Below are positions 39,491 through 58,716 of a stretch of 64,000 nt of DNA, in pieces. Source of the stretch: an uncultured Verrucomicrobiae bacterium. Lineage in GTDB: Bacteria; Verrucomicrobiota; Verrucomicrobiia; Chthoniobacterales; JAFAMB01. The first letter of the stretch is position 1; each line of letters begins with the position of its first letter. The DNA is taken from the NCBI GenBank assembly GCA_963762565.1, contig CAVXLD010000012.1, positions 1-64,000 on the forward strand, read 5' to 3'. The notes beneath the pieces are model-generated. The model worked only from the letters and a program-made list of their open reading frames with translations, made no database searches and was not told where the DNA came from. A program made the translations under genes and the position numbers.

Positions 39491-39960
39491 AATTGCTCAG
39501 CGTAAGTAACTTACGTCGAAGATAAGACCTGAGTAATAACAAAACCAATAACAAGTCCGGCCTCGTCCATTCTCATCCGCACACGCAGTCCAGCTGCACG
39601 CGGAGATGCATATTACAATTCCGACATGGTGCGGGGGTCCGAGGCGGATTATGTAAGGCAAGACTCGTTTGGCCTTACACAAAGTCGCTTGAAGCTATTT
39701 CGCTTTACACAAAGTGGGGCGTTTCTCCGCCCGACTTTCCGCCTCCCGCCCTTAGCTCACGTTTTGGTTTTGATTCTTGAGAGCGAGGAACGAGCGAGCA
39801 AGTAATCAAAAACAAAATACGGTGACCTTTCAGTGCGAAGCGGAAGCGAGCTCAAGCTCAAAACGGAATAAATGGGGGCAGCCCGTAGGGGGAACCGTTT
39901 ATGCCGGATTTGAGCGTTGAACTCGCTGGAACGGAGCGCTACGGCTGCGCTCCAACGCAG

Positions 39961-39991
39961 CACAAACAGCGCAAAGATTGCGCTATTCGTG
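39961..39991. promoter_or_regulatory. Putative AbiEi autoregulatory inverted repeat
   Basis: cacaaacagcgcaa-aga-ttgcgctattcgtg, 40 bp upstream of the abiEi ATG. Confidence 0.5.
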
Positions 39992-40030
39992 TTGATGAGG
40001 GGTTTTTCCGCGATAAAATATATTCTGAGC

Positions 40031-40633
40031 ATGAAACGGTCTTCCAAAGACTCCGAAGCCAGACTTTTCGCCGTGGCGGAAACTCAAGGCGGCTTTTTCA
40101 CCGCCAAACAAGCTGAGGATGCGGGTTTCGATCGGACGCATCACGCTTATCACGTGCGGACGGGAAATTGGCTAAGGGAACACCGTGGTGTTTATCGCCT
40201 GACTCGGTTTCCCATGCCCGAACGTCCAGATCTAATCCTTTGGTCTCTTTGGTCTAGAAACCGGGATGATCAGGCTCAGGGTATTTACTCTCATCAAACG
40301 GCACTCAGCATTTACGATCTTTCCGATGTCATGCCGGCTAAATTGCACATGACGGTTCCTCGCAGCTTTCGCCGCAACGCGGAAATTCCCCCCATTCTGA
40401 TTCTCCACTACGATGACATTTCCGCCGACGAAGTAGAGGAACGAGAGGGGTACCGGGTGACTTCTCCGATCCGGACCCTCGTGGATGTCCGGCACGAGGT
40501 TTCCGACGAACTATTTTCACAAGCATTCAATGAGGCGAAAACACGCGGACTAATCACTGGCGCGGACGTCGAGCGTTACCGTGATAAACTGCCAGGTCTT
40601 GTTTCGGGCCGTAAACGTCTCAGAGCCGCGTGA
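40031..40633 (+). CDS. abiEi: Type IV TA antitoxin, AbiEi family
   Basis: AETQGGFFTAKQA, HRGVYRL, SHQTALSIY, LHMTVP and VTSPIRTLVD motifs. Overlaps the toxin start (GTGA). Confidence 0.88.
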   Translation: MKRSSKDSEARLFAVAETQGGFFTAKQAEDAGFDRTHHAYHVRTGNWLREHRGVYRLTRFPMPERPDLILWSLWSRNRDDQAQGIYSHQTALSIYDLSDVMPAKLHMTVPRSFRRNAEIPPILILHYDDISADEVEEREGYRVTSPIRTLVDVRHEVSDELFSQAFNEAKTRGLITGADVERYRDKLPGLVSGRKRLRAA

Positions 40634-41478
40634 AGGATCACCCTCGTCAATACGCCACGGCAGCTGCCTTTCGGGTAGCCCTGGAAACGCGGCTCAAATC
40701 AATAGCAACGGCCGAAGGCGTTGATTTGCAACGTCTGCGACGCCAGGTCTCCTTTGACCGTTTGCTTGCTCGCTTCTTTGAGAAACGCAATGCACCGTGG
40801 CTACTAAAGGGCGGCTATGCGATGGAATTGCGTCTCCGGACGGCGCGTACAACGAAGGATATTGACATTTCTCTGCCCGCTAACGCGGCCGCTGGACTTG
40901 GCGACGAAATCCTGGTGGAGTTGCAGCGAAGCGCACATGCCGACTTGGGAGACTTTTTTGCGTTCACGATTGCTGAGCCGCAAATGAATCTCGATTCTGC
41001 TCCCCAGGGCGGAGCACGGTACCAGGTGACAACCAGGGTTGCGGGCCGCCTTTTCACGAGATTTCAGCTGGATATCGGAATCGGCGACGCGGTTGTACCG
41101 CCAACAGAACTGATCGAAGGACGCGACTGGCTGGGTTTTGCCGGTATCGCTCCCGGAAGATTCATGGCGATTTCCAAGGAGCAGCAATTTGCCGAGAAAC
41201 TCCACGCTTACACTGTGCCGAGGGCTGATGCGCCGAACAGCCGGGTGAAAGATCTAGTAGATATGATCCTGCTGATTCAGATGGAGACAATGGACAGAGC
41301 CATTCTCGAGCAGGCAATTCAAACCACGTTTGAATTGCGCGGGACGCATGCTGTTCCTTCTATTTTACCGAAACCACCGGAATCGTGGATATCGCCATTT
41401 GATACCATGACGAAAGAATGCGGCCTCGAATTGACGTTGGCTGACGCCGTTCGGATCCTCACAACCTATCTTCACTGA
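40630..41478 (+). CDS. abiEii: Type IV TA toxin, AbiEii nucleotidyltransferase
   Basis: LLKGGYAM, RTTKDID, AEKLHA and RVKDLVD motifs. Confidence 0.92.
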   Translation: MKDHPRQYATAAAFRVALETRLKSIATAEGVDLQRLRRQVSFDRLLARFFEKRNAPWLLKGGYAMELRLRTARTTKDIDISLPANAAAGLGDEILVELQRSAHADLGDFFAFTIAEPQMNLDSAPQGGARYQVTTRVAGRLFTRFQLDIGIGDAVVPPTELIEGRDWLGFAGIAPGRFMAISKEQQFAEKLHAYTVPRADAPNSRVKDLVDMILLIQMETMDRAILEQAIQTTFELRGTHAVPSILPKPPESWISPFDTMTKECGLELTLADAVRILTTYLH

Positions 41479-41795
41479 TAGTCGTGAACGCCAGAAAACG
41501 ATTTATCCATTTTAGGTGCTGCTCGATCAAATAGAGAGTGGTCGCTAACAGACTGTATTCCGTTCGTTGTAATGAAGGAGCTCGGCATCGATGATAGCTC
41601 AGCCTAGCGATCGCCATTTTGAGCAGGCCGGCTTTCGAATTCCGCTAAAAGACTAACTTTTTTCGTTTGACAGCTTTTCCGTCTCATTTGCTGCTAAACG
41701 GGTAGTTCACAAGAACTCACCAATACACATATCCGCTCTTTGAAGGTCGGAAAAACCTCCAAAACTGGCGCCAGGCGGTTTGCTATCTTGGGCTC

Positions 41796-42038
41796 ATGCT
41801 AACCACAGAAATCCGGCTGGATACTCATAGCGGTCCTGTCACGCTCAACCCGCGGTGGCTTCGAATACCGGCCGCGGTCAAATACTCGGGTCTTTCTAGA
41901 TCAAAGCTTTATGAATTGCTTTCGGAAGGACGAATTCGATCCATATGCGTAAGGTCACAAAAGGGAGCACAACGTGGAGTTCGTCTCATTGACAGAGAAT
42001 CGATCGATCTTTTCATGGAAAGCCAAGAGTTCGCTTGA
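41796..42038 (+). CDS. Excisionase/AlpA-like HTH DNA-binding protein
   Basis: WLRIPAAVKYSGLSRSKLYELLSEGRI...RLIDRESIDLFM. Confidence 0.8.
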   Translation: MLTTEIRLDTHSGPVTLNPRWLRIPAAVKYSGLSRSKLYELLSEGRIRSICVRSQKGAQRGVRLIDRESIDLFMESQEFA

Positions 42039-42955
42039 AAATAACGATGGGAGAGGAAAAGAGAGCTTTCAAAGGGGTATGGATCTGCGCTGCTATTTTT
42101 CTCGATGAGAAACTAACTCCGGCCGAGAAGATATTGTTGGCAGAAATCGATTCCCTTACCGCAGACGATCAGGGTTGTTATGCCAGTAACGCACATTTTG
42201 CAAAGCGCCTGGGTGTGACCGAGTCGCGTGTCAATCATGTTGTGGCGCGGTTGACTCGTGAGGGATACATCATTCGGGTGTGTTACGACGGCCGAATTTC
42301 GCATAGGGTTGTAGCACCGGAGTACAGCAGCAATCCGGCGACTTCACGCCGATTGATAGAACGACACCGCAGACTTGCTAAAAATAGCAGTTCTGAATTG
42401 TCACATTCGGAAGATAGCAATTCAGAGTTGCTAAAAATAGCAACTCTGAGCTGTCAAAAAGAACAGCCCAGAACTGTCGAAAATAGCAGCGCCTTATTAT
42501 TAAAGAAAGTACCAACAGAAAGTACCAACAGAAAGAGAGAATACGACGACGACTACTTATGAGGAGAATAAACCTAAAGAAGCGTCGTCGTCGCGTTGTG
42601 CTTCTCTCTCTGTTTTGTCAGGCGGGGCGGAAGAGCCAGCTGCGGAAGCGTCGGATGAATTGGGGATGGCGAACGCGCAGGGCGACGCGCTAGCGCTTGA
42701 GCTCGGCAGGGAGTTCCGGCTCACTGGTAAGCAGCGTCAGACGGTGACTGAATATTGTGAGTCACACGGACAGGAGTATGTGCTTGGTAAGGCAGAGATC
42801 GTGCGATCGGCGCCGAGGAAAAACGCGGCGGGGGCTTTGCTAGGCGCGCTACGCGAGGATTGGCAGCCGCTGTTGAGACCGAAAAAAGGGCAGACAAAGC
42901 CGCGCGGTTAGCGGCCTCCAGGGCAATGGCAGCAAGGATGGGCTGGGAATGGTGA
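42035..42955 (+). CDS. Phage-type replication initiator (N-terminal HTH), with frameshifts near 42540 and 42870
   Basis: RAFKGVWI...LTPAEKILLAEIDSL...CYASNAHFAKRLG. Low-complexity linker with iterons, then TTTT and KNAAGALLGALREDW in shifted frames. Confidence 0.7.
42370..42493. repeat. Palindromic iteron array, putative replication origin
   Basis: Five related dyads starting at 42370, 42393, 42423, 42446 and 42469, followed by an AT-rich tract. Confidence 0.65.
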
Positions 42956-44729
42956 TGGGAACATCATCTTGCCAGATGTGCGGGCGGGAGCTTGGAGGCG
43001 TCCGGCGGCGTAATTGTGTGCGGCCGGAGCTCCAGGTTCGCGCCGAGCGTGTGTGACGGATGCGCCGGAGCCCGCTAAGCCAAGGAGCAGGCGCGCAAGG
43101 ATCCGAGCAGGAACCGTTGGGAGCGCCTATGTCCAGAGCTATATCGATGCACTCCAGGTTATCGCGACACCGATGAACATTACTACGAATTCCAGAGAGG
43201 GTCAGCGCAGCCAGCATGGTCCTGTGTAGAAAAGTTGCGTGAATCCGCTCCTTTAGTCACGGTGATGTCGATCAGAGCAGTCCCATCCGAAGCCAGCATA
43301 AGCTGATGCTGGTCATTAGCGTTTTCTACCGGAGCTGCTGCTGGCTTTTGCGTGCCGTCACAGCCGGTATCGGCAACGACCAGCAACAAGCGATAACGAC
43401 CGGTAACAAAAAGGGCTGACTGTTATCGACGCTTGCTGCTTATTGCCAGTGTATATATCCACAAGCTACTTTCGCCAGCCTAACGAAGTTAGGGGCATGT
43501 GCGACAATTCAATATCGAGCGAAGCGAGTCCTTGTTTTGGCTGCCGAAGGCGACTAACTGACGCGAAGCAGTGCACCTCTTCTGGACGGACTATACATAG
43601 GCAATGACACGAAATGATCCGCGTGACTAACCCATGCTAGACACTAGCGCGATAGGGCAGAGCGGCCGATGGTTGGTAAGGTAGTGGACACTTCCATGGC
43701 TGAGTTGGTGTGTTATCGAGCGCTGCATCTGTCAACGGCGACTATCATTAGAAGGAGCGGAAAGTCCGAGGCGAATTCATCCGGCTCTGGCGGAAGAATG
43801 CGGGCTTGAGCGACAAACTGATTCTTAAGGTGCCCGGCCGCCGACTTCTCTACATCGTGATCAAGCCGGATGACTCGGCGGGCCGAAGAGCGAACTCCTA
43901 AAGAGGGAGGCGCGGACGTAATACGCCGCCCCGAAAACTGATCTGTCGCCGCACGATCCGGCGATTGAGCTTCGCTTAGTTTGTGCGAAGGGCTCAGGTG
44001 CATCTCGAAGATAGAGGCTGAGCGGAAGCTTCGCACGGGTCCCGATGGCGGCTTCTGGACGTCAGAACGCTGCATCTCCTGGGCTCTCAGAGCCTCACCT
44101 GGAAAATCGTGAAGTTAAACAGCTGGAGCCTGACCACGGCCGCGTTGGCAGAGTCCAGTTTTCCGGTTCACTGGATTAAGCATCCAAAGGTCAACGCCAA
44201 AGCCTGGCTCTTGGTTGCGGCCGCGATGGTCCGCCCGGTTGTCCTCGCCCTATCTTTACCGCGCTCCAAGTCCTTCCGCGCTGTCGCTGAAGATCCGCAA
44301 TGGGTGTCTTCCACTACCTCACGTCACAGACATTGATGAGCGTGTATGAGGCTTACATGCTTGTTCCGCCGCCACCTTTTCGGCTTTGCAGACGAATGAT
44401 TTGTCGTCCTCCATTAGACCATTGCAACCAACCTGCTCGACCTAGCGCGTGATCTGAGAAATGAGAGCCATGACTCGTTAATGGGCAGAATCAGTCAGCC
44501 GCGTTGCGTTCGATTCCAAACGGGCTCGCCCCGATTTCGGCCTTGGGCTGAAATTTTCTATCACCTCGTCTCACTGATCCTCGGTCCGAGAACGACGGTT
44601 TTGTTACCGGACGGCGGGCTTAATCATTTTTCACACAGTTTTCCCACTTAGCTTCCACTGGAGAGATAGTGTTCTCTTTGATCGACGCGATCACTTCTTT
44701 TTGCACTCTCGTACACGAAGGTGTCTTGG

Positions 44730-44908
44730 AGGAAGTCGGCCACGACAATTGGCTGATCGCCAGTGTCGAGATTGATCACCCTCGCCGCCTGTTCCAGGAG
44801 CGGCAGCGCCAAGGCGCCGCTGGCTGCCGGAATCGCAGCGTTGTTGTTGTAGAAACCCTTGCCTTCCATGACGCCGACCGGTGACCTCGGTTCGTGCGAC
44901 GTCCCCAC
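44730..44908 (-). pseudogene. N-terminal fragment of a SAM-dependent carboxyl methyltransferase (SABATH-like)
   Basis: VMEGKGFYN...LALPLLEQAA...PIVVADF, after which similarity breaks off. Confidence 0.6.
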
Positions 44909-45003
44909 TCAGCGAGTTCATAGTGCGAGATTGACTACGGCCCGCCTATTCACGCGTTTTCAATGGAATTTATGCTTTTTAGATTTAGATTGCGAAAGTT
45001 CAA

Positions 45004-45350
45004 ATGAAAGGTCCCCCCCTTGGATTCCAATCGGTCAAGGTAGTTGCACTGGCAGCAACTGATGTCGTTCGGGCCAAACGTTTCTACTCAGAGACTCTTC
45101 AACTGGAAGAAGATCGCGAAGCGACCGACGAGGTGGGTTCCCGAATCGGTTGGCTGGGTGCGCTGATTACTCGCCAACATCCTCCTACCGACGATCCAAA
45201 TCCGCGCATCACTTTGCAAGTACAAGACGCTCGAGAGACCGAAAAACGACTAACAGAACGAGCAGTCACAATATCTGATCCGGTAAAGTTGTACGAAGAC
45301 AAGTTCTGGGTCGGTGGGTCCTCAACTCGGGAACAAACTCTGGTTTTGTT
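45004..45350 (+). pseudogene. VOC/glyoxalase family protein, degraded
   Basis: VVALAATDVVRAKRFYSETL and RITLQVQD motifs. C-terminus out of frame. Confidence 0.6.
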
Positions 45351-45798
45351 CCTACGCCTAATTCGCAAGCTCTCCCAGGACGAACGTCGAGCTCCTAGAG
45401 CAAGTCCGATCCGTACCGGGCCAGCGTCGAGTTTTCGTTTTGCACCATTTGGATTGCCGGCGTTCAAGCTGGGAAAGGCCACCGCCGAAGCAATAGCGGT
45501 TTCTGGGCTACGGCGCAGCTAACTGGCGTCAATTCTTCTCTGCTTTGTCGATGTTAACGTCGACATTGCTTTTGAAATCTTTTAATCCCCCTTGATTACC
45601 ACCGATGTAAAGTTTGCCTTTGTAGACGATCAAAGCGCCCGGGCACTCGGGGTCGGCTAGCGGAAGCATCCTGCCAGAAGCCATCGGTTGCGTCCGGCGT
45701 GGAACCCTACGGTTCTCTTGAGGTTTGCAATCGGTGCCGTGCCGGAGCAGTTCAGTTTTTCAGACCATGCAGGTCAGCTTAATCCCTGGAGCTCAATT

Positions 45799-46120
45799 AT
45801 CCCGAAGTATTTGACGGGAGTCACCGCCGTGCGCCGGAGGGAACAAGGGCCTACTGAAAGAAGGGGGTACAGCGCGGCGCGCTGTTGTCGAGAAGTTGAT
45901 GAAGAGCCTAGGCGGTCACCTCAAGGCTTACTATTTTGCGTTTGGGGAAAACGACGCCTACCTCATTACTGAAGTACCTGACAACGTGGTTCACGCTGCT
46001 CTCTCTCTCACGGTAAGTGCGTCCGGCTCGATACGTACGAAGACGATTGTATTGCTTACTCCTGAAGAGATTGATCAGGCAGCAAAAAAGACAGTTAAAT
46101 TTCGACCTCCGGGAGGCTAA
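45799..46120 (+). pseudogene. GYD domain protein with damaged 5' end
   Basis: PKYL...KGLLKEGGTARR...LGGHLKAYYFAFGEND...TIVLLTPEEID. Start reads ATC and a frameshift lies near 45840. Confidence 0.7.
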
Positions 46121-46177
46121 ACCGATTAGCGGTTCCTGCACAAAACGGCCGGAATGGCGTCACGAGTTTTCGTACCG

Positions 46178-46215
46178 AGGGTACTAGAGAGATCCGTGTA
46201 ATTTTATACGCTAAG
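46178..46215. repeat. Tn3-family 38-bp terminal inverted repeat
   Basis: agggtactagagagatccgtgtaattttatacgctaag fits the GGGG...ACGCTAAG pattern and abuts the tnpA 3' end. Confidence 0.7.
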
Positions 46216-46887
46216 GACGACCCTTTTTGCGCGACGGCGCCGGCGGACGAGCTTTCGATCGATGATATATGGCCGTAGAGCACGACGTTATCCCACTCGA
46301 TGGGGCTGACGTGTTCCAGCAGGGAGAGATCGATTCCATTGGCGACCGGGTCGCACTCACTCAGGACCCGAGAGATTTCGCACGCCTGCCAGTAGACGAT
46401 GCACGCCAGGATCAGGTTCAGGCAGCTGCATGTGTTCATCTGCCCCCACAGCTCGCGGGCTTGATCCGGCCGCGTCGCCCGTAAAAGACGTCTCTGGCCG
46501 AGGCATGGAGTTGCTCGACCTCGAGCAAGCCGCGCCGGATGCGCGGCGCAGTTCCGGCTCCGAGAGGGACTGGAGGATGAACTCGGTCTTGAAGATGCGC
46601 CCGAGATCCCGATTGGCGCGGTAGAACCGGTTCTTGGCGCTGAAGCCTACCAGGCGTTTCAGGGCCACTGACGCCGTGACGTGGCCGGCCTTGAGCGAGG
46701 CGTAGAGTTGACCCATGCGGTCCCAATGCTCGGCGATCTGCCGGTGTCGATGGTTTGATCGGCGCGGCTGATCAAAGACGCAAGCGAACCGTAGTCGCGG
46801 TTGGATCAATCCGGTAGATCGCTGGTGCTGGACTCCTCGGATGCGCGGGCAGAAGCGCAAGCCCAGCATGGCGAAGGCGGCGAGGTT
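46204..46887 (-). pseudogene. tnpA: Tn3-family transposase C-terminal remnant
   Basis: MLGLRFCPRIR, LGRIFKTEFIL, LNLILACIVYW and HVSPIEWDNV in several frames. Confidence 0.85.
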
Positions 46888-47310
46888 GGGGTAGGCACAA
46901 AACGGAAAATGAAGCCGATAACGCAGGGAAATCTCCTCGTAGTCAGAGTGCGAACCTTGGTCAGCAAGGCTAAATCCTGCGCCACAAGGCAGCCGGTTTT
47001 CGCGTGCCAGTCGTCACATAAAACGAGCTGTAATCTAATTCTGGAGCGTTTTTTAAGGACGAATGATCCTCGGGAACGCCTGAGCATACTTTAAGTTTCC
47101 GTTTCGTGAGGTCAGGCGTAATCCAAGACCAGACACTGCTTTAACTGGACGTAGTTGATCGCGTACGGAAACCCCAAGGCGCGTGATTTTCGTCTTGCAA
47201 TAAAATATTGGGATGACTAATTGTCTTAGATCTGAAAATGATATTTAAAGTCGAATAAATCACTGAACGTCATGAATGAAACCGCGAACGGACACCGTTG
47301 AAAAATTGAG

Positions 47311-48718
47311 ATGAAAAACGTGAATGACATATCCAAACAACTCAAAGGCATCGCTCTCTGGAGGGGCTCCACAGTACGGTAAGCGTTCCGCCGGGATCCG
47401 CTCATCCATGGCGGCAATATCTCGCGTTCGCGGGACCGGCCATGCTGGTCAGCGTGGGTTACATGGATCCCGGAAACTGGTCCACGGACTTGAGCGCCGG
47501 GGCCGGGTTCCAATACGAGCTGCTCTGGATCGTGGGCCTGGCGAGCCTCATGGCGATTTTCCTGCAGGTGGTCTCCGCCCGGCTCGGCGTGGTGACCGGC
47601 AAGGACCTGGCCCAATGTTGCCGGGACCATCTGCCCGGGTGGACGCGGTGGCCGAATTACCTCAGTTGCGAGATCGCCATCGCCGCCTGCGACCTGGCCG
47701 AGGTGCTGGGCAGCGCAGTCGCCATCCATCTCTTGTTCCCGCGCATTTCGCTGCTCGCCGCGGTCATCATCACCGCGTTCGACGTGCTTCTGCTCCTGTC
47801 GCTTCAGAGGTTGGGGATGCGGTTGATCGAGGCGGTGATCGTCGTGCTCATCGCGACGATCGGCGTCTGTTATTTCATCGAGATTTTCGTGCTACCGCAG
47901 ACCACGCCGAATCTGCTCGAAATGGCTTCTGCCACGGTCGCGCCGAACCTGGCAGCTTTCTTCCGCAACAAGGACATGGTTTACATCGCCATCGGCATCA
48001 TCGGCGCCACGGTGATGCCGCACAATTTGTATCTGCATTCCGCGCTGGTTCAGTCGAGGAAATTGCAAGCCGACGATGCATCGGTGCGCCGGGCGATCAA
48101 GTTCAATACACTGGATTCCGTCATCGCGCTGTCGCTTGCGTTTTTTGTCAATGCCGCCATCCTGGTGCTGGCGGCGGTGGTCTTTTTTGGCAAGGACAAG
48201 CTGACACTGCCCGGCGGCGAGGTGGTGGCGTTCAACGCGGACGCGGACTGGATTCAGGTGGCCTACCTGACGCTGTCGCCGCTGCTCGGCGTGGCGGCGG
48301 CAAGCCTTCTTTTTGCCCTGGCGCTCCTGGCCAGCGGGCAGAGCAGCACCATCACGGGTACGCTGGCCGGGCAGGTGGTGATGGAGGGATTCATGGATTG
48401 GAAGATCCGGCCCTGGGTGCGCCGGTTGATCACCCGCGTGGCGGCCATCATGCCGGCGATCTTCCTCATCGGCATGCGCGGGGACGGCGGAGTGAACGAT
48501 CTGCTGAACCTCAGCCAGGTGGTGCTGGCCATCCAGTTGCCGCTGGCGATGTTTCCGCTCCTCTGGTTTACCGGCTCCCGGAAGCTGATGGGATCGCATC
48601 GCAACGGCTGGTTCCTCGCCATCGCTGGCTGGGCATCCGCCTGCTCATCACGGCGCTGGACATTTATGGTTTGCCGGGCGCGATGCATGACGCGATGGCT
48701 GTATTCGCATCTCGCTAA
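47311..48718 (+). CDS. mntH: Nramp divalent metal (Mn2+) transporter with two terminal single-base frameshifts
   Basis: VGYMDPGNW, DLAEVLG, GATVMPHNLYLHS and GQSSTITGTLAGQ signatures. Confidence 0.92.
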
Positions 48719-48733
48719 AATCATTAGAAGTCT

Positions 48734-49170
48734 ATGTACCAAAAAATATTGGTAGCCCTGGATGCGACGGAGGCGGATGAGACGATCCTGGAGCATGTGA
48801 CCGCGCTGGCGCTGACCTTCGACAGTTCGTTGGTGATCCTGCACGTGGCGGATGGCTGGGCGGCGCGATTGTTTGGCGCGGATGCGGTGAGCCGAGATCC
48901 AGCGACGACAAGGCCTATCTGGAATCAGTCCGGGCCCGGCTGGCGGCGGAGGGCATGCGGGTCGAGGCGGAACTGGCTTACGGTGAACCTGCGGATCAGA
49001 TCGTCAGATGGGTCGAAAGTCGTGGGCTGTGACCTCGTGGCGATGTCCACCCATGGCCACCGGTTCATCAGCGACCTGCTTTACGGCAGCACGGCGGATA
49101 ATGTGCGCCACGGGTGGATGTGCCGGTGCTGATGCTCAAGGCGAGGAAAACACCTGCCAATCGTAAGTAA
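48734..49170 (+). CDS. Universal stress protein (frameshifted)
   Basis: MYQKILVALD, LHVADG, GEPADQIV and DLVAMSTHGHRFISDLLYGST motifs. Confidence 0.82.
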
Positions 49171-49319
49171 CACTATCCCCTCAATCCTGCTTGAGCGTGC
49201 CGCGTCGTGCTCGGGGTGGCTCCCCTCTTTATCTAAAAAACCTTCACCAGAAGAGCTCCGACTTAGGCTCTGGAATTTGGAGTACAAACATCTCGGCACC
49301 TGAAGCGTTGGAGGGGAGG

Positions 49320-49680
49320 ATCGAACAACTGAAAGCGGAGAGGACTACCTGGTCTGTATATTTGAGTCTATAGAAGAGAAGGGATAGGGAGATCTAGTCG
49401 CCGAATGTGGCTGAGTCTCTTGCAGTGGCCGAGTCAAGCGCTTCTGCGATGATCATGCGGTTGGCGCAAAAGGGCGATCTAAAGCATGAAAAATATCGGG
49501 GATTCACGCTCACGGGTTCTTGCAGAACCGCCACGGGCCGAGAGGTTCGCGCTCGGCGCTGGGGATTTACAGTTTTTTTGCAATCCCTCCATCCTCCAAA
49601 GAATATGATTCAACACGATGTCGATGGGTTGGGATAACGGCCCAGCCAGACACTCGAGCAGTTAAAGTTACTTGGTTCAA
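49320..49680 (+). pseudogene. DtxR/MntR-family metal-dependent regulator
   Basis: ESGEDYLVCIFESIEEKG, then a stop, then VAESLAVAESSASAMIMRLAQKG..HEKYRGFTLT...HDVDG. Confidence 0.7.
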
Positions 49681-49879
49681 CTGGAGCAAGACCAAATTGG
49701 GTCCAAACACGAGCTTAAACCGCCAGCCAGAGGGGTGGTAAGCAATCCACTTGCCTACATAAACTCAAATTTTGTCCAGATTGTTGAACAGCCAAAAAGT
49801 GTTAGCTAACTGAAACTCCTAACCATTAGATTAACTTCCTACTTACTTCTCACGAAAAGCTCTCATCCGTCTCCCTTCT

Positions 49880-51315
49880 ATGGCTCGTCGTCCGACGGTC
49901 TGTTAGGTGGTTGTTGCTTAACAGACAGACCAGACCCAGACCGGTCGGCTACCTGCTGGCAATAGGATCTGCACCGTTTTTTTTCTCGTGGTTGAGTTCC
50001 GCGCAACAGGCCTGGCCAAGCCCTTCTCCGACCTTGGTCTCGGTGGACGGAAAACAAGCCACAGCCTGAGCTTCCGGTGGAAACGAAGTGGACACGATCA
50101 TGCAAAATTGGGCTATCCATGGAGATGCGATTGAAGTTCTCGAAGGCCAACCGGGCTCCCATGACCCTTATAACGGTACGAATAGTCTGCGTTCGACCGA
50201 CAATTTCCGAAGACTTCCATGGCCGATCTCTTCTTTGATTTCCGGCTATGGCCCGGAGCAGAATTTTACTTCAACCCAGAATATTATCAGGGCTTTGGTT
50301 TAGGAGTTACTACGGTATCGCTGAGTTCCCCAACTCCAGGCATACAAGATTGGCAAGTATCGCGGTGATGTGTTCCTTCCCCATTCTTTTATTCGTCAGA
50401 TTATCGGCTTCGGAGGTGAGCAAGAGCATCTGGACGCCGGTCCGCTGCAGTTAGCTGAAAACGTTGATATTTCGCGGCTGACGATTACCGCGGGCAAAAT
50501 GGCCATCACGGACCAATTCGATAACAACACTTATTCTCACGATCCGAGCTCGCAATTTCTAAACTGGACTCTGGTCGATGCCGGTGCTTTCGACTACGCC
50601 GCGGACTGGTTGGGTTTTGAGTACGGTTTGACCGTCGAACTAAATCAAAAAGCGTGGCTGCTCGAGTCGGTTATTTTACTGTTCCCCGGTCAATGATCGT
50701 CTGGGGACCGATGGTCACTATCTTAAGGCCTATCAGCTGGCTGGTGAGCTGGAGGGACGATACCAAGCTCTTTGGCCATCCGGAGAAAGGTTCGCTTTAC
50801 TGGTTGGCTCCTGCACCAACATCTGCTGATTTTACGTCGCTGCTTGCTGATCAGAGTATCCTCATTAACGGCCTGCGCGAGCCTACCGATGGATTATGAC
50901 TGATTCTTGGCTTCGAACAGGAATTGGCGAAGGACGTCGGCGCGTTCGCTAGGTTCGCCTATCGGGATTCGCGTCTGAAGCCTACATGTTAGATAATCGA
51001 TCAAGCGCCTCGGTTGGTATTACTGTGAACGGTGAGCGCTGGGCTCGCTCAAACGATATTTTCGGAGTTGCCTTCGGGCTGGCCGACATCGGTGTGGCGC
51101 ATCGCGACTACTTTAACGCCGGTGGCTTGGGCGTCCTGATTGGCGATGGCGAGCTTCCCCATTTCGGCTACGAAAATTTCACCGAAACCTTTTACGATCT
51201 CGCAGTCTACAAGAACTTGAGTTTCACCCTGGATTGCCAACTCTTTTTTAATCCCGGCTACAATAGTGACAAAGGGCAGTCAGCGTTCTCTCAGGCCCGA
51301 TCACGTGCGCTCTAA
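49880..51315 (+). pseudogene. OprB-family porin resembling the high-affinity Mn2+ porin MnoP, multiply frameshifted
   Basis: RLTITAGKMAITDQFDNNTYSHDPSSQFLNW, GAFDYAAD, GGLGVLIGDG and NPGYNSDKG motifs. Confidence 0.72.
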
Positions 51316-51439
51316 GACGATGCAGCAATTCGAGCGAAGGCGCTATGTCCGACGAATCTGTGACTCGCGTGTACCAGCATCCCCGGCGACTTGAATAAGA
51401 GAAAGTGCCTGGCATTCGCCCTCTTTTTTGTCGGTTGGA

Positions 51440-51982
51440 TTACCGTCGGGAGCAGATCGAGAAGTCTGAGGACTGGGAATCGCAGTCGCAGAAACCATCG
51501 GTGTAGGGCTTGAGTCGAGTAGGCTTTGGTGCGCCATCGGGCACCTGGAAGTTTCCACGATAACCGGCATCATCGAGATATCTCTGCGAGTCACTTGGCT
51601 CCGGCGGGCAACGAACGAGGATGCGGTCCCAGTCAACCAGGACCGTCCGCACCTTGGACCTGAATGATCTCATTGTCCGGGCGGGCACCCCGACAGCCTT
51701 AATTTCACTCAGTAGCGTGGTTCGCGGCGAAACGTCTCGACCGACCCGGCCAGTAACCAAAGTCTGCCTGTGTCCGGACGTATCACGAGAAATCCCCCGC
51801 TTTCCAGTCTTAGTGACTGAGAAATCAAACTGCAGGTCCGTATTCCGATCATTCGGGGCGCTCTTGTCGATCAGATCCTGAGCCGGTAGGGAGCCTGCCA
51901 ACCCCAAAAAAGAGTTAAACCGCGCCACAGCGATTCACAACACGATTGATATCGACACCCGGCCAGTATCGTGATATTCCAT
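51440..51982 (-). pseudogene. Degraded gene, possibly a PfkB-family kinase remnant
   Basis: LVTGRVGRD...LLSEIKAVGV resembles the PfkB signature-1 region. Heavily disrupted. Confidence 0.25.
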
Positions 51983-52378
51983 CGCCCTTAATTCGGACGA
52001 ATTCCGGCATCGGTCAATAAGGAGCGCTGACAGAAGCCATTCGGGTTCCAGAGACTGGCTCTAACTGATAAATTAATACGACGCGAAGTATCGCTATCAA
52101 CAGGCCTTTGATGTCGATCCGAATGATGTCTGAATCTGAACGCTGAAACGCGGCTTACCGGTTAGCCTCCCGTGAGCTCAAAGACGTCGTTATGTGACCG
52201 TTCGGTGAGAAATGCTCCATGCTCCTGATTGGATCAGTGAAGACGATGGGGTTGAGGTCTGGCAGCTACCATAAGGATTTTGACTTTTTTTACCTCTTAT
52301 CCAGCTAAGGCGAAGCCGTCCGAGGCGTTGGATGCATGTCGACACCTTCTGGAAAGCCGCGAGAAAAGCGACAGCCGA

Positions 52379-53640
52379 TTAGTTTCGCGGGATGAAAAGA
52401 AGAGCACTTCGTTCAGGCGAACTCCCACAAGGCCCACCACCGCCACCACCGCCAACCCAAGCAGACCTTCCTCCTGAATCCTGCTTCCTTGTTATGCCTC
52501 GGATCAGCGGAACGTTAATTAGAATACTGGTAAGGCTCGACAGGATGATCCCATTACCGCCGGTCGCCGCGGATATTCCATGGTAAGCAATCAGCGTCGC
52601 CGCTAACGCAATAGAGGAGGCACTCGAAAGTAGGCCTCCCGCCGCGCTGACAAAGTAAAAACTCGGCGGTCCAAAATTCCGTTGAGCAAGAGCGCCAACG
52701 ACGTTGAGCGCCAGAAAAACCAGGCGACTTAAGGGCTGCGGAAAGCTTAAAAGGCGACTTAGAGCAACGCGGCCGTTTCTCCTGAACTGGCGTCTGTTGG
52801 GTAACGCCGCCACAATACCGCGCTGGCTAGTAGCATCAGGGTCAGCGGTATGCGCATGCCGTAGCCGCTTGTGAAGCCAAGACAATAACGATCAAACCGT
52901 TGTGCAGGACCATTGCCCCGGTCGCCAGCATGATCCCGCGATAGACCGATCGTTGTAGCGGCGCACCACTTCTTTCAGGCGAGTGGTCAGCTCGACTACT
53001 ACCTTCCGACTATTGACCAGGCCACCAAAGAACGCCGTGATCTCCATTCCCCGCGGCCAAAGCAATCATCAAGATGTAACTAACGATCCCAATTCCCGCG
53101 ATAATGATTACGCTGGCCCAGTTTGATTGCGGTTCGATCAGTCCCCATGGATCGACCGCATGGAGGGTAGGACCGAAAAATGACAAGTGTTAGGATCGCC
53201 AAGAGGATTGCCGAGCGGAGCTCTTTGTCGGACAACCCCCTCAGCCCCCCGAGATTGGCTGTTTCCAAACAAGCAGTGCGGCTTGACGACGCCAACCACA
53301 AGGGAGTGAAAACGTGACCTTGACCACAAAGGATTCCAGCAAATCCACCCAGTGTTAAAGCGGTTGAGGTCGTTAAGGCTAACGCTTTCTGCAACACCAT
53401 TTGCCGGTAGTTCTCCATGAGCCGCCATCGCCACAAAGCCCAATGCGATCGTGGAGAACATCGCCGATAAAACCTCCCAAGCATCCGAGCAAAGCCGTAA
53501 GGGCAAAAGTTCTTACGCCGTTCTTACCGCTGCGCTCGCGCTCCAGACCGATAAACAAGCCGATGGCGACCGCTAGGCCAGTCGGGTCAGAATCGGGACA
53601 AACGGCCAGTGCGACACCTGCCATAATTCGAAGCTGCATC
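52379..53640 (-). pseudogene. MgtC/SapB + DUF4010 membrane protein, frameshifted
   Basis: IGLFIGLERE..GVRTFAL, LTTSTAL, ELRSAI, DPWG, FGGLVNS and GGLLSSAS fragments. Confidence 0.8.
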
Positions 53641-53767
53641 TTGAGCAGTTCCCATCGTTGTACTCCAAACAGCGAACGTAAGGCTCTGGACCGGGAAGTC
53701 AGAGACAACAACTTTAAAATCGCATTACGAAGGACGCGTATGGTAGCATCAAGGCGATCTTTGAGGA

Positions 53768-54195
53768 ATGGCGAATCAGAAACAAACCACATTTAATCCA
53801 AAGAAGGAGGTCTCCGTGATGGCATGGATTGAGAACGACGAAGGCGATGTCTTGCTGGTTCGGCAGACAGCCGGACAAAAGCTTTGGACGCTGCCAGGGG
53901 AAAGGTCAAGCGAAACGAATCGCTTGAGCGTGCCCTAAAGCGCGAGATCCGAGAAGAGACCGGACTCAGGGTTGTAGCAGTTCGTTATCGGCAGATGTAT
54001 GACCGACCCAAGCGCGGAGCAATGACTATCTTGTTCGCAGTCTCCGTGAAAAGGAACCCTACCCGAACATATTTTCCGACTCGTGAAATCGCCGATCTTG
54101 GTTTCTTCGATCGTTTGCCCGCTAACGCCACGCCGTCGGCTAAATTCTTTTGGAAGGCAGAATATTCGGGGAAGCATTTCCACCCTCCAGGTTAA
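53768..54195 (+). CDS. NUDIX hydrolase (frameshift near 53900)
   Basis: VLLVRQ..WTLPG/GKVKRNESLERALKREIREETGL Nudix box. Confidence 0.82.
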
Positions 54196-54419
54196 CACCT
54201 TAAAGACCACATCTCTTTACGGACCAACTGCCTTGGTTTCAAGACGTCGGCAGCAGGTCTTTTCAGTTCCTCCCCTAACCGCTTCTCAGCTTGGAGAAAA
54301 GACTTTCTCCCCGTCGAGCCCCAAAGCGGTCTCTCCTTCCTCTTTCTCCTAGGACGAACCAGGTTCGCCTAATACCACTCCTGTACCAAGTGTCTGGCCA
54401 TCGCCAGATTTACTTCCGC

Positions 54420-54633
54420 CCCGCGGAGGCCTCTCCAGCGCAAGAGTGCCGTCTACGGCTTAAACAGCAGGCTCCCACTCTCTCGGCAAGCCTCGGGGGT
54501 CCCCTCTACTTAAATCCTCAACCCGTCTCGTTCCTCGCGGCTCTTGCGCCTTCCAGGCTTCTTCCGCGGGTCGCTCTGCTAGCGCTTCGCTTTCGGTTCG
54601 AAAAATATGCCCAGCATAGTTTTTCGACCGAAA
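54420..54633. promoter_or_regulatory. Long stem-loop leader upstream of DUF932 (possible ssDNA promoter or priming signal)
   Basis: Inverted pairs cccgcgga/tccgcggg, gcgcaagag/ctcttgcgc and tttcggttcgaaaaa/tttttcgaccgaaa. Confidence 0.4.
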
Positions 54634-54717
54634 CCGAACGTCGAAAAAACTCCGGCAGCTCCCAAAGCCTCGCCTCTCTGCTGCGGCTCACAGAACCAAC
54701 TAACCAAATCGACTAAC

Positions 54718-55135
54718 ATGAGTACAGCGTAAGACAATCACTCCACCAGATCAACAGTCCCTGGAACGGTAGCAATTTCTGATGATGAAATGCGCCGTTT
54801 TGCTCCGAGTGTTTTCGCTTCCCAACCAATCGAAGGCGTTTCGGAAAGGTACAGTTTCCTTCCTACTTCCTCCATTCTCAACGGGATGCGCGAAAATGAT
54901 TGGGTTCCCGTACGCGCACAAGAGCAGAGCACTCGAACGGAAGCGCGGCGCGGCTTCCAGAAACACGTTGTCCGGTTTGCTCGGGTTGAGCATCTCCAGA
55001 ACCTGGGAAAAGAACCAAGTCCGGCCCGAGGTCGTTCTTGTGAACAGTCACGATAAAAGCAGCGCTTACCAGCTTCATTGCGGTCTGTTTCGGTTGGTGC
55101 GCACCAACAAAGATTCGGTGACACGAGGCACATAG
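54718..55135 (+). pseudogene. DUF932/DUF945 mobile-element protein, truncated
   Basis: MRRFAPSVFA..SERYSFLPT, FQKHVVRF and PEVVLVNSHDKSSAYQLHCGLFRLV motifs. Confidence 0.8.
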
Positions 55136-55425
55136 CCACAAGTGTGAATGCGCTGACGGGAAGCCGTCTTGAGTTTGGCTACACAAACATGACGGCAGAA
55201 TTTTTTGTCGAACCTGCTTTGTGCAAGGGGTCTAAACTGATCTTTAAAACTTTTAAGGGCGAGGCGTGAAATTCAAGTTGCTAAGACGCCAATCGGATTA
55301 AGCTGACGATTAAGCAGAAAATCTCGTCCTGATTTTAGGGTGTCTGCTGGGATCAAATTACCTCCACTGTCTGCCTAAAACCGCACGAAGAACGCAGAGC
55401 CCTGCGATTCGGTCGCGCTATCTCT

Positions 55426-56085
55426 TCATCCCTTGCATTTCCACACCGCAATGCCGGTTTCTGAATCTAACACAATGTGATTCGGAATAGCGGCTCCTAG
55501 TCGTTGCCCGGCGCTAAGCAAAAGGGCGTTGTTAGAGCGGCGAGAAAAGCCGTTGGGCCCGTGGTAATGGCCAAAGTGAACAAAATCCGGTTGAGCTTTG
55601 GAAATCATCGCCTGAGCCCGGCCTGGATCATGAATTAACAAAAGCCACGGTATAATGCGTTCAGCTTTCAAACGTTGGCCTTCTTCGATCACAGCATGTT
55701 CTCGCTCAATCGACGATGAAAAAGGGATTGTCGTCACGATGAGTTGTTCGCCGATGCATCGTGTTTGCCCGTCGCCCACAAAGCCGAGCGCATCACCAAT
55801 TTCTTCCAACCAAGACGCCGCATAGCAGGTCTCCCCGCCTTCTACTAATGGCGGTAACACCTCAATCTGATCGTGGTTCCCGGAACAAACAGCTAAGGAA
55901 GTTTTCTGCGTAAGTCGGCGCCAGAATTCTTTTACAAGGACCAGTTGGTCTTCGATCGGGACTTTGCTGAAGATGTTGAGTAGGTCCCCGGCGATCGAGA
56001 CTAACTCATATTTGCTGGCCTCGTCTTCCAACCAACGGAACCAATCCTCCTTATAGTGCAGGTCCGCGGTGAGCAGGATTTTCAT
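55426..56085 (-). CDS. Calcineurin-like metallophosphoesterase
   Basis: ADLH, AGDLL, SGNHD and FGHYH motifs. Confidence 0.88.
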   Translation of the reverse strand: MKILLTADLHYKEDWFRWLEDEASKYELVSIAGDLLNIFSKVPIEDQLVLVKEFWRRLTQKTSLAVCSGNHDQIEVLPPLVEGGETCYAASWLEEIGDALGFVGDGQTRCIGEQLIVTTIPFSSSIEREHAVIEEGQRLKAERIIPWLLLIHDPGRAQAMISKAQPDFVHFGHYHGPNGFSRRSNNALLLSAGQRLGAAIPNHIVLDSETGIAVWKCKG

Positions 56086-56451
56086 GTTGATTCGAGATCC
56101 TCTTCTCTACGGCAGGGCGGCAACCAATTACGCCAAAAAGGGCTAGTTTGGTAGCCCCAAGGATTTATAACCAGTTTAGATCGTCTTGTCTGCTTTTGAT
56201 AAACTCGCTTGCTCTTCCTTTGGCGGCATCACCATTTTTGACGGAGAGGGTTATAGTCAGTGGATCCATCCCCTGACGAACTACGGCCAGACGTTGCTGG
56301 CTGACCAATTGGAGAACCTCAGCCAACACCGCTGGCGGTCCGGCTATTTCCGCGGTCGCAACCGGGTGAAGCAACACACCTTGTCTTCTTCCAAGAGAGC
56401 CCCATGCAGATACGAACAAGTCACCGTCTGAAACGATTCGCTAAGCGTCTT

Positions 56452-56572
56452 ATTACTTATGTGCACTTATTATCACTTATGATCGCTTCCCCAATCGAGA
56501 ATAGGAGCCGAGTGATAATATGTAACCATAAGTAACCATATTCTGATTACATATGATTACTTCTTGGAGATA
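56452..56572. repeat. AT-rich cluster of short direct repeats
   Basis: acttat x3, gtaaccata x2 and tgattac x2. Confidence 0.4.
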
Positions 56573-56767
56573 CCGTCTCAACTTAATCCGCAAGGATTAG
56601 GGGAGACGTCTGTTAGAGCAAAAATGGCGACCGGAAAATGTATCTACTCGAAAAATGTGGGCGGACACTTTGTGTGTTCGCGAGCGTGCGGGACTTGCGC
56701 CCAGCGGCGTTTTTGAGCGATCCGGGTATGCTGAGGATAGTGGAGTCACGGTCAGCAGCCAGCGCAT

Positions 56768-57907
56768 TTAGACCGCAGGAAGAGCCTCAGTTGCCTTCTG
56801 GAGCGCGTCGCGACCAACCGATACGTAAAGCTCATGCATCGCTTCGCTATCGTGCCCGATGAGCGCTTGCGCTACAGCCGCGGGGACACCGGCCTCGTGG
56901 AGCATCGTCGTCGCGGTCCTACGTAGACTGTGAAATGACAGGGGTTCAACGTCTCTCCTGGATTGTCGACCTTTCCCGGCGCTTTTGTGATTCTTCTTTT
57001 CCCGCAATCCAGCGGCTGCAAGCAGATCGGCGAATTGATTGCTGAGATTGCCAGTTTTGTGCTGGCGCTCGACCAAATCAAAAGCTTTCGGGTGGATGGG
57101 CGCTGCTGGATCGTCTGTGACATCCAAGGACGCGATATGCTTTCGAAGAGTCGCCGCCAGCGGAAGAATCATCGTCTTTCCGGTCTTCCGGGTTGAAAGA
57201 CGCAGCTCGTTGCGCAGCAAATCGAGATTGTTCCAACGCAACGTTGCGACATCTCCCAATCGCTGGCCGGAGTAGAGTCCGAAAAGGATCATCGAGCGCC
57301 ATTCATCACTGGCTAGGTCTAAAATGCTGCGTAGTTCCGTCAGGGTAAATGGGCGTTTAATTTTCGATGCTCGTTCCCTCCTAACTGGCTCAACGAATTC
57401 GGTAGGATCTTCCGTGATGACGCTATCTCGCCGGGCGCTCTTAAACATCATTTTGAGAGCTTTAAGATCATGGTTCGCGGTCTTCGCCGAGACTTGCTTG
57501 GTCAACGAATTTCGGTAAGCCACAACATCTTGCTTTGTGATCTCGCGGATGGGCTCATCCACCCGACCGCCAAGAAACTCCACAAATTTGTGCAGACTGC
57601 CGCGGTAAAAGGTCATCGTGGATCGAGCGGTCTCCGCGACCTTGGCGCTCAGCCAATCGTTTAAGTACTGGCGGAAACTGGTCCGCACGATCTTTTCGCC
57701 GGAGAGCTCTTCGTGCAGTCTCACCAAAACAGCTTGCGCTTGTTTGAGGGTTCGCTTGGTCCGTGCTGCCTTCTCGAATTCATCCGCGAGCTTTTGCGCC
57801 GTCTTGCGGCTTGTCTCTTTCGTGGTGATGCGCCGTTGGCGCCCGTTGTGATCGCGAAAACAGGCTGTGAAATACTTTGATTCCGGATGCTTCCAAATGC
57901 TAGCCAT
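56768..57907 (-). CDS. int: Tyrosine recombinase / integrase
   Basis: Arm-binding-like N-terminus, SGQRLGD (R), RKTGK (K), FHSLRRT (HxxR), IGHDS and LY (Y). Adjacent to attR. Confidence 0.95.
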   Translation of the reverse strand: MASIWKHPESKYFTACFRDHNGRQRRITTKETSRKTAQKLADEFEKAARTKRTLKQAQAVLVRLHEELSGEKIVRTSFRQYLNDWLSAKVAETARSTMTFYRGSLHKFVEFLGGRVDEPIREITKQDVVAYRNSLTKQVSAKTANHDLKALKMMFKSARRDSVITEDPTEFVEPVRRERASKIKRPFTLTELRSILDLASDEWRSMILFGLYSGQRLGDVATLRWNNLDLLRNELRLSTRKTGKTMILPLAATLRKHIASLDVTDDPAAPIHPKAFDLVERQHKTGNLSNQFADLLAAAGLREKKNHKSAGKGRQSRRDVEPLSFHSLRRTATTMLHEAGVPAAVAQALIGHDSEAMHELYVSVGRDALQKATEALPAV

Positions 57908-58025
57908 GCCTAATAACATTTCTAATAACATCCAGCATCATCCAAAGCAATCCATGTCTTCTATGACTCCGCGAATCCTCTCTGAAAGCACATCTACGGA
58001 CGTCTCTGGATGGATCTTCGGCGAA

Positions 58026-58052
58026 ACAGGGGTTCGACTCCCCTCGCCTCCA
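58026..58052 (+). repeat. attR core (duplicated ssrA 3' end)
   Basis: Identical to 39464-39490. Confidence 0.92.
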
Positions 58053-58255
58053 GAACTTCGCCCCGTCGTCTCAGGCGCCGGGAGGCTACGTCTGGCAGGC
58101 CAAACTCAGCCGCAGCCCTGACTTTCGAGCTCCAAATAAGGGGCGAAGTCTGTCCGACATAGCCTCCTGGAGTTTCAGACGACAGGGCGACGTCGGACTT
58201 TCGTCGCTGCCACCAGTCCTTGCCATATGTTCGGAGCGGCGACGTTTGGCAGGCC
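58049..58255. repeat. Cluster of three hairpin mini-elements
   Basis: 58049-58099 (-), 58149-58197 (+) and a degenerate ~58198-58254 (-). Confidence 0.6.
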
Positions 58256-58344
58256 AGACTTCGCAACTACACCAAGCGAACTTTCTTAGGCGGAGTGATT
58301 TTGTTAAGATCAGCGGGCCATCAGACCCTCAATATCGAATTTTA

Positions 58345-58716
58345 ATGTTTCACGTCTACGTCATCGTCTCCGAACGTGCTGCAGACCGTTACTACATCGG
58401 CTTCTCATCCCGCCCCGATGACCGTCTGGCCGAACACAACGGTGGCAAAAATTCATACACCGATGAAAGCCTGCGGTGGCTGCAGTCTGACTACATCGAC
58501 CTTCTGCTGGTTCATTGGCCTCGGGGAGGCGCTTCCATCGAAGAGCAAATCGAAGGCTTAAACCGGGTTGTAGACGCGGGCAAGGTTCGGCATATCGGCG
58601 TGCACAACTATAATGTCGCGATGATGCAGATCGCGGTTAACATTTCGAAACCTCTTTACTTTCGCGTCCCAGTCAATGGTCGCAATGGCTGTCATCTCTT
58701 GGTTTGGTCTTCGTAG
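58345..58716 (+). pseudogene. Chimera of a GIY-YIG nuclease N-terminus and an internal aldo/keto reductase fragment
   Basis: MFHVYVIVS..RYYIGFS..DRLAEHNGGKNSYT joined at ~58461 to DESLRWLQSDYIDLLLVHWP...GKVRHIGV.N. Confidence 0.78.

Follow-up and report, generated by a model that had tools for sequence, protein, structure and literature searches.

A probable decayed GIY-YIG cassette at a displaced tmRNA end in an uncultured Verrucomicrobiae bacterium, and its association with a dispersed family of small hairpins

What is the origin of a cluster of tiny hairpins that lies between the displaced 3' end of a transfer-messenger RNA (tmRNA) gene and the broken gene of a small GIY-YIG nuclease? The question is posed by positions 58049 to 58461 of contig CAVXLD010000012.1 (GenBank assembly GCA_963762565.1) from an uncultured Verrucomicrobiae bacterium, within a stretch of 64,000 nucleotides (nt; positions 1 to 64,000 of the forward strand) that we call the window; the whole genome, of 6.1 Mb, is referred to as G000. 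The initial annotation had proposed here a new kind of system, a hairpin insertion element with a GIY-YIG nuclease as its partner, by analogy with the repetitive extragenic palindromic (REP) hairpins spread by RAYT transposases. Our computational analysis indicates that the segment is very probably a decayed GIY-YIG cassette of a type that resides at transfer RNA (tRNA) ends; the fuller reading, in which this cassette is a minimal one whose nuclease and hairpin are partners, is in our judgment somewhat favored. The locus consists of the following features, among which hairpins were scored with R1, a covariance model trained solely on 48 short leader hairpins from other phyla and run on the window with filters off.

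39142..39490, + strand: tmRNA gene (ssrA), tag ANQELALAA (ARAGORN; Rfam RF00023, 165 bits)
39491..58025, no strand: integrated island of about 18.5 kb separating ssrA from the cassette (27-bp direct repeat, integrase)
56768-57931, - strand: tyrosine integrase at the right end of the island (Pfam PF00589, E 2e-16)
58026..58052, + strand: displaced ssrA 3' end, the right att site of the island (exact 27-bp repeat of 39464-39490 by blastn)
58049..58099, - strand: leader hairpin 1, with CCTG tail, CCAGAC stem, GTAG, inner part, CGAAG and stem
58140..58152, + strand: half-site GGGGCGAAGTCTG, preceding hairpin 2, the counterpart of GAAGG[ACT]TG in other phyla
58149..58198, + strand: leader hairpin 2, with TCTG tail, TCCGAC stem, ATAGCC, inner part, GGCGAC and GTCGGA
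58198..58254, - strand: degenerate stretch with the 5' half-site GGCCTGCCAAACGTCGCC only, no full copy, poor fold
58345..58461, + strand: truncated GIY-YIG gene, first 39 codons (Pfam PF01541, positions 2-41 of 78)
58462..58716, + strand: internal aldo/keto-reductase fragment that continues the reading frame of the GIY-YIG stump (PF00248, profile positions 92-149 of 291, E 2e-14)

Because region 39491-58025 is bounded by the 27-bp end repeat and has a tyrosine integrase just inside, it can be recognized as an island in the ssrA 3' end, and its insertion therefore pushed the old downstream DNA away from ssrA; the gene at 39142-39490 is the neighbor that the cassette had before the island inserted. 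The DNA immediately left of the repeat at 58026-58052 is still tmRNA 3'-domain-like (partial Rfam tmRNA match). At the head of the old downstream DNA the two hairpins stand in inverted orientation. Hairpin 1 (R1 19.1 bits, E 0.019) overlaps with its 3' arm the TCCA of the ssrA end, in agreement with the overlap seen by the initial annotation, and hairpin 2 (25 bits, E 0.0006) has a core identical to the commonest dispersed copies. The open reading frame (ORF) of the GIY-YIG gene starts at 58345, 147 bases past hairpin 2, and its stump keeps Y5, Y17, R27 and H31, while the portion with E63 is gone; the truncation at 58461, as first described, is followed by an aldo/keto-reductase fusion that is a rearrangement scar. 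A hydrophobic ORF of 165 amino acids (aa) at 58692-59189 (- strand), without a Pfam family, adjoins this scar. Rfam found at the locus only the tmRNA and chance-level matches. Elsewhere in G000, at C2:9270-9505, a second dead cassette of the same clade consists of a tRNA-Gly(GCC) 3' fragment, a hairpin and a GIY-YIG start that ends after about 30 codons (fragment C2:9415-9504).

The anatomy of the cassette is visible in a congener, G002, in which an intact tmRNA gene is immediately followed by the same two hairpins, hairpin 1 in the same position and hairpin 2 conserved, and then by an intact 83-aa GIY-YIG gene (P0001), itself preceded by a tandem partial copy. The stretch 58198-58254 has no counterpart in the G002 spacer and was not recovered by R1 in the window, so that its listing as a further copy did not hold up. 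P0001 matches PF01541 across residues 2-70 (E 3e-13), and its Pfam matches are solely to GIY-YIG-type domains; NCBIfam has no family for P0001 or P0002, and a PDB sequence search found only GIY-YIG domains of UPF0213 and of SLX1, the latter being the next-best solved relatives of P0001. In G012 a solo hairpin follows the tmRNA and the gene is lost, and in four further genomes (G001, G016, G017 and G020) different DNA lies behind the tmRNA; the G001 site is not a clean empty site because its flank is unrelated, with neither hairpins nor gene.

Small GIY-YIG genes of this bacterial family (43 genomes compared, many of them fragmented metagenome-assembled genomes [MAGs]) almost always come after a tRNA gene: ARAGORN called a tRNA at 17 of 20 loci, and one further locus has a tRNA 3' fragment. 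The genes of interest belong to clade A, which is marked by the C-terminus YLKSGSGxAF and includes tmRNA, tRNA-Tyr and tRNA-Gly types. Hairpins separate the RNA gene from the start codon at 10 of 12 clade-A loci of the bacterial family, and at none of the 11 loci of other small GIY-YIG types does a hairpin lie between tRNA and gene; these other types often begin 12 nt after the tRNA. The single intact small GIY-YIG gene of G000 is of such another type: it lies on C1 (C1:179900-180460, L032), encodes 84 aa and begins 12 nt after tRNA-Lys(TTT). It stands between two partial tRNA-like copies, one with an insert of about 23 nt in the anticodon region, and the tRNA 3' end is repeated on either side of it. 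An earlier, narrow scan, in which 1 of 20 loci had a hairpin, had suggested the GIY-YIG gene as a mere bystander; this was overturned by the wider hairpin definition and the recognition of the leader.

The cassette is conserved well beyond the bacterial family. With each species represented by a single genome, the search gave 586 clade-A relatives, of which the best 80 loci were analyzed; they come from Verrucomicrobiota, Acidobacteriota, Planctomycetota, Lentisphaerota and candidate-phyla bacteria, and also take in Bdellovibrio, Geomonas and alphaproteobacteria. A tRNA or tmRNA lies within 700 nt upstream on the same strand at 54 of these 80 loci (tmRNA at 14), and a hairpin within 450 nt upstream at 64 of 80, compared with a background of 0.20 per 450 nt at the same loci. 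The tie to small GIY-YIG genes at tRNA/tmRNA 3' ends, for which the initial annotation had proposed an enrichment test, is supported. Y5 and Y17 are invariant among eight aligned clade-A proteins, and E63 is present in seven. The minus-strand leader copy has the tail GGC[CT]TG and a stem beginning CCA, and its far arm is therefore the complement of the CCA end of the RNA gene; the plus-strand copy is preceded by GAAGG[ACT]TG, the comparison with GGGGCGAAGTCTG being based on the flanks of 40 plus-strand leader hairpins.

That the minus-strand arm always includes the CCA of the RNA gene would also be expected if the cassette homed to pre-existing hairpins, including tRNA-end look-alikes, cut by its nuclease in the manner of free-standing homing endonucleases. 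Tandem re-insertions at the same end, and the 26 of 80 loci at which no upstream tRNA was called, can be read in the same way. We consider this explanation very improbable: the hairpin is mostly missing from genomes without the gene, hairpin copies are far more numerous than genes, and the 83-aa single-Pfam-domain proteins are without a DNA-binding domain of the T4 Seg kind.

A second alternative gives the hairpins a role in cis only: they might end the tRNA/tmRNA transcript, regulate the nuclease gene or act as a site of recombination, and solo copies would arise through recombination, slippage or decay of former cassettes, with no dedicated mobilizing enzyme. Consistent with it, the hairpin pair folds into a single long structure (-32.7 kcal/mol, z -1.9; 9 of 200 shuffles do as well), a T-rich run follows the plus-strand hairpin in G002 and G012, gene-less cassette remnants exist, and five relatives carry tandem partial duplications of leader plus gene start. 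Against it, the locus yielded no terminator-like site, 30-nt solo copies stand with exact ends in unique DNA at sites empty in congeners, and differing subtypes interrupt other repeats at an identical W^AG position; we regard it as improbable, if less so than homing to pre-existing hairpins. In the tandem arrays, leader hairpins plus the first 8-57 GIY-YIG codons are repeated two to three times before the intact gene (L009 in G020, L012 in G004, L023 in G022, L016 in G005 and L002/L003 in G002).

The hairpin family itself is real, as the initial annotation had claimed. Each copy consists of a 4-nt CYTG 5' tail, a 6-bp outer stem, RTAG, a variable inner part between 4 and about 45 nt long, CGA[AC] and the closing stem; the core, written RTAG/CGA[AC], is a mismatch-T:A-mismatch, and RTAG is not located 5' of the hairpin but within the stem-loop, where it separates the outer stem from the inner one. 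A strict pattern (CYTGYCCGMCRTAGC-N4-60-GCGAMGKCGGR) has 104 matches in G000 and none when reversed, and a looser, stem-checked scan gave 251 matches versus 78 in the reversed genome; a pattern without a pairing check gave matches equal to the control. R1 finds at least 52 copies in G000 at the whole-genome threshold of E<=0.01. The outer stems covary between subfamilies (TCCGAC 91, TCCGCC 31, CCCGAC 8, TCCTCC 4 and CCCGCC 2), and in the alignment of 48 leader hairpins, whose outer-stem pairing is partly imposed by selection, the inner pair covaries as well (CG 23, UA 20, unpaired 1), with the A and G of the conserved RTAG invariant. Apart from the locus described above, the window holds the following copies.

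2344..2377, + strand: solo copy (R1 E 0.09)
2891..2965, + strand: nested pair, in which the outer copy CCTGTCGCGCTGT..GCGAAGGCGGA is interrupted at GT^AG by the inner copy 2904-2943
6732..6762, - strand: copy in the loop of the GCCTCGCA^AGCGAGGC repeat (R1 E<0.1)
7221..7251, + strand: copy in the loop of the GCCTCGCA^AGCGAGGC repeat (weak R1 match, 7221/7233)
8293..8350, + strand: 57-nt copy within the GGGAGGGATCGC..TCCTCGCGATC shell repeat (R1 E<0.1)
13154..13185, + strand: weak copy (R1 E 5.7)
20429..20458, + strand: 30-nt solo copy (weak R1 match, in the group of E 1.4-5.7)
34823..34865, + strand: copy CTTGTCCGATGTAGCTAAAGGGGGAGATGGGGCGAAGTCGGA (R1 E 0.32)

The count of about 12 copies given at first was in part upheld: six were recovered by R1 at E<0.1 (58149, 2904 on the plus strand, 8293, 6732, 58049 and 2344), whereas those at 20429, 7221/7233 and 13154 are weak (E 1.4-5.7), 2891-2965 is the outer member of the nested pair and 13196-13226 fits the hairpin model only partly. 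The copy at 34823 had been missing from that list.

Comparison of orthologous sites reveals that the hairpin inserts as a mobile element, with exact ends and without duplicating its target. The comparison, made with the congeners G002, G003, G004 and G005, rests on two sites. G000 and G004 carry the 75-nt nested element at 2891-2965, which G002, G003 and G005 lack to the base; the second site, with the 30-nt copy at 20429-20458, is filled in G000 and empty in G002 and G004. Both inserts begin CCTG and end GCGGA. Filled and empty sites, which the initial annotation had suggested looking for, therefore exist; the interval 34300-35400 of the window gave no usable ortholog for such a comparison. 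The hairpin also lands in the loops of other hairpins, at W^AG sites: copies are nested within other copies at GT^AG, and 23 copies, representing at least three subtypes, lie in the loop of the GCCTCGCA^AGCGAGGC repeat, so that the earlier observation of copies interrupting other repeats is confirmed, also for the shell repeat discussed below. A tandem repeat built on GCCTCGCAAGCGAGGC is very abundant in G000 (419 core strand counts, e.g., window 6733-7251) and adjoins a 353-aa Y1-like gene with a long C-terminal extension (right flank of C1:531653).

Precise insertion raises the question of whether the hairpins are of REP type and owe their movement to a Y1 transposase (RAYT- or IS200-like) from another locus, with their closeness to GIY-YIG genes due to a shared preference for tRNA ends and intergenic hairpins. 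Insertion without target duplication is typical of IS200/IS605 and was seen at both filled/empty sites, REPs of E. coli are typified by a GTAG next to the hairpin and the present hairpin has a conserved RTAG, and G000 has 13 Y1_Tnp matches. Among these are five short RAYT-like genes flanked on both sides by their own REPs (C7:408676, C3:712440, C3:55401, C9:102172 and C1:119023); those REPs are of GTAGCC, ATAGCC or CAGCC type, with 6-60 BLAST copies. The REPs around these five genes and around three RAYTs of G012 differ from the hairpin, however, and none of the 13 Y1_Tnp genes of G000 has the 5' motif of the hairpin within 1.5 kb. Of the shell repeat discussed below, the flanks of the G000 RAYTs and of three G012 RAYTs hold no more than one half, 130 nt past the RAYT at C9:102172-102684. 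Y1_Tnp occurs in 38 of 41 relatives, with or without the hairpin, and so does not track it, whereas at 80 loci from many phyla the hairpins cluster within 500 nt upstream of the GIY-YIG start. A Y1 transposase as the mover is therefore unlikely in our estimate, although it is the strongest of the three alternatives. The window itself contains no Y1_Tnp match, in accordance with the statement that no RAYT is present (those on the contig are at 531636 and 565110), and the suggested contrast between GIY-YIG and RAYT neighborhoods came out on the side of the former.

The pairing of a minimal GIY-YIG nuclease with dispersed hairpins has been described before, and the idea behind the initial annotation matches a published kind for that reason. 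Chenal et al. (2025, PMC11893778) show that SsnA of Neisseria meningitidis (CDD cd10448), a GIY-YIG protein of 94 residues, binds the oriented hairpin NTS only when the DNA is single-stranded and that the cut falls upstream of this hairpin; cd10448 homologs are flanked by related SRM hairpins, with hundreds of copies in many genomes, and in the Discussion the authors liken NTS-ssnA-NTS to RAYT/REP. The claim of a new kind of system is thus superseded by Ssn/SRM (PMC11893778); clade A, its hairpin and its position at tRNA ends are absent from the parts of that paper at hand. Like Ssn, clade A is a single-domain GIY-YIG protein of about 80-95 residues, its Y5, Y17 and E63 line up with the Y6, Y17 and E64 mutated in SsnA (PMC11893778, Fig. 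3 legend), an oriented hairpin with a conserved 5' tail adjoins its gene, and solo copies number in the tens to hundreds. Unlike in Ssn, the hairpin sequence is different and the hairpins form an upstream inverted pair rather than flanking the gene on both sides. The published SRM motif, HGTCWYN(0-2)YYVSBRHN(0-5)WNVSBRGN(0-2)RNCYNB, is not enriched in G000 (30 matches versus 25 reversed) and was found near the gene at 0 of 80 clade-A loci and at none of nine local or relative loci. The clade-A cassette also differs in sitting at tRNA/tmRNA 3' ends, terms that do not occur in the main text of PMC11893778. In the review file of that paper, bacterial SLX1-like proteins are given as a sister clade of Ssn. 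Its Supplementary Data 4 (PMC11893778) gives Geomonas paludis and Bdellovibrio bacteriovorus as lacking ssnA or a cd10448 homolog, and clade A is present in both species, in assemblies or strains other than those of that list, which argues indirectly against membership of clade A in cd10448. No description of the clade-A cassette or its hairpin was found in the literature searched, most subscription journals and bioRxiv supplements being outside the search.

Other known systems share single traits with the cassette. Like REP/REPIN elements with their RAYT, the hairpins are short, often form inverted doublets and insert precisely without target duplication, and one or a few enzyme genes stand against many hairpins, which can outlast the gene; unlike a RAYT, an HUH tyrosine enzyme, the associated clade-A gene encodes a hydrolytic GIY-YIG nuclease, has hairpins on its 5' side only and has a fixed home at tRNA/tmRNA ends, and the G000 RAYTs are flanked by other REPs, not by the clade-A hairpin. 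Tyrosine-integrase islands likewise use tRNA/tmRNA genes as landing places, the window providing an example at 39491-58025 with its 27-bp att repeat; in contrast, the cassette has about 0.4 kb, no integrase and, as its junction, a hairpin on the CCA end. Seg enzymes carry additional DNA-binding parts, and the architecture of homing endonucleases, a nuclease joined to a DNA-binding domain, was not found by Pfam in the 83-aa clade-A protein. T4 SegB, encoded in a tRNA gene cluster (PMC2330249), resembles clade A in that a GIY-YIG gene lies among or next to tRNA genes and shows selfish-looking behavior with duplicated flanks, whereas Seg enzymes cut double-stranded DNA and are not known to have a dispersed hairpin family.

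Our results suggest the following course of events. A minimal cassette would reside at the 3' ends of tRNA and tmRNA genes, headed by two inverted copies of one conserved hairpin (stem, RTAG, small inner hairpin, CGAAG, stem), of which the first uses the CCA end of the preceding RNA gene for one of its arms, and followed by the gene of a single-domain GIY-YIG nuclease of about 80 residues. By analogy with SsnA/NTS, the nuclease may bind the leader hairpin in single-stranded DNA and cut beside it, the hairpin being its cognate site and the solo hairpins derived from cassettes; this cutting could have founded both the CCA-end home and the solo copies. Host repair or replication would have to finish the insertion, because GIY-YIG enzymes only hydrolyze. 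At the present locus, the integrase island later parted the cassette from ssrA, and a rearrangement cut the nuclease gene after codon 39, which accounts for the death of the local partner. That nuclease and hairpin form a functional pair is, judged by analogy, probable; that the nuclease drives the spread of the hairpin is less likely than not, and we put it forward tentatively.

Several comparisons support the partner idea through the association of the hairpin with clade-A GIY-YIG genes. At the 80 loci, 107 of 118 R1 matches lie within 500 nt before the gene (48 of the 118 being training sequences). Five carrier genomes of other phyla have at least 20, 2, 52, 29 and 42 matches, compared with at least 2, 0, 0, 0 and at least 6 in five relatives without the gene. 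In the bacterial family a clade-A gene or fragment is held by 10 of 14 genomes with at least five R1 matches and by 4 of 29 with fewer. The proposal of a GIY-YIG partner was thus sustained as an association across phyla, with the local gene dead and movement by the nuclease a conjecture.

A number of points weigh against the partnership. Many hairpins occur where no clade-A gene was detected (47 in G015, 52 in G021, 28 in G024 and 31 in G017, all MAGs that are 61-87% complete), and G010 has a clade-A gene and no R1 match. No intact clade-A gene was found in G000, and both of its clade-A copies are fragments, yet it has the most strict hairpin copies. The hairpins stand upstream only, unlike the two-sided NTS-ssnA-NTS. 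GIY-YIG enzymes hydrolyze DNA without a covalent intermediate, and reinsertion would therefore need other factors. The R1 training hairpins were picked by a stem-pairing regular expression, with which the model shares assumptions; the per-genome R1 counts are lower bounds, 150 candidates having been scored in each; and statistics over related genomes ignore kinship, the genomes not being independent. Finally, 82 of the 104 strict copies, plus about seven variants, sit at the apex of a shell repeat, GGGAGGG[CA][GT]CGC..TCC[CT]CGCG, which is uninterrupted in 437 of its 547 strand counts, so that composite amplification better explains the bulk of the copy number.

Most G000 copies are thus now embedded in a more abundant REP-like shell, along with which they may have been amplified; the 110 of 547 shell strand counts that carry a hairpin at the apex form inverted doublets of about 240 bp (e.g., C10:438340-438590). 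A fuller form of the shell, GGGAGGG[CA][GT]CGC-G-TCC[CT]CGCG[CA][GT]CC, can be written for G000 genome-wide. The present copies in G000 are relics or passengers. In genus g11 (L128, G015:C210; L129, G021:C45), hairpin copies lie just upstream of a UvrC/Cho-like GIY-YIG ORF of about 290 aa and are translated into its extended N-terminus as SLGEGG-type peptides.

Within the window the element is a dead relic, and its local biological weight is small. If the link between nuclease and hairpin is functional, the Ssn idea, a nuclease of about 90 residues that reads a hairpin in single-stranded DNA, would reach a second, very widespread clade, which has no fewer than 586 relatives when each species is represented by one genome, and a hairpin code of its own. 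It is possible, if still doubtful, that clade A is a second GIY-YIG family, an SLX1-like sister of Ssn, whose self-propagating cassettes of about 0.4 kb home to tRNA/tmRNA CCA ends and spread their leader hairpin through single-stranded DNA; this would make it the GIY-YIG counterpart of RAYT/REP, with transposition begun by a purely hydrolytic nuclease. If true, the cassette would account for the tiny GIY-YIG genes behind tRNA and tmRNA genes and for the SLGEGG/ADK-type junk ORFs and the intergenic hairpins that are common in Verrucomicrobiota, Acidobacteriota, Planctomycetota and other phyla, and it would offer new enzyme/site pairs for single-stranded DNA tools.

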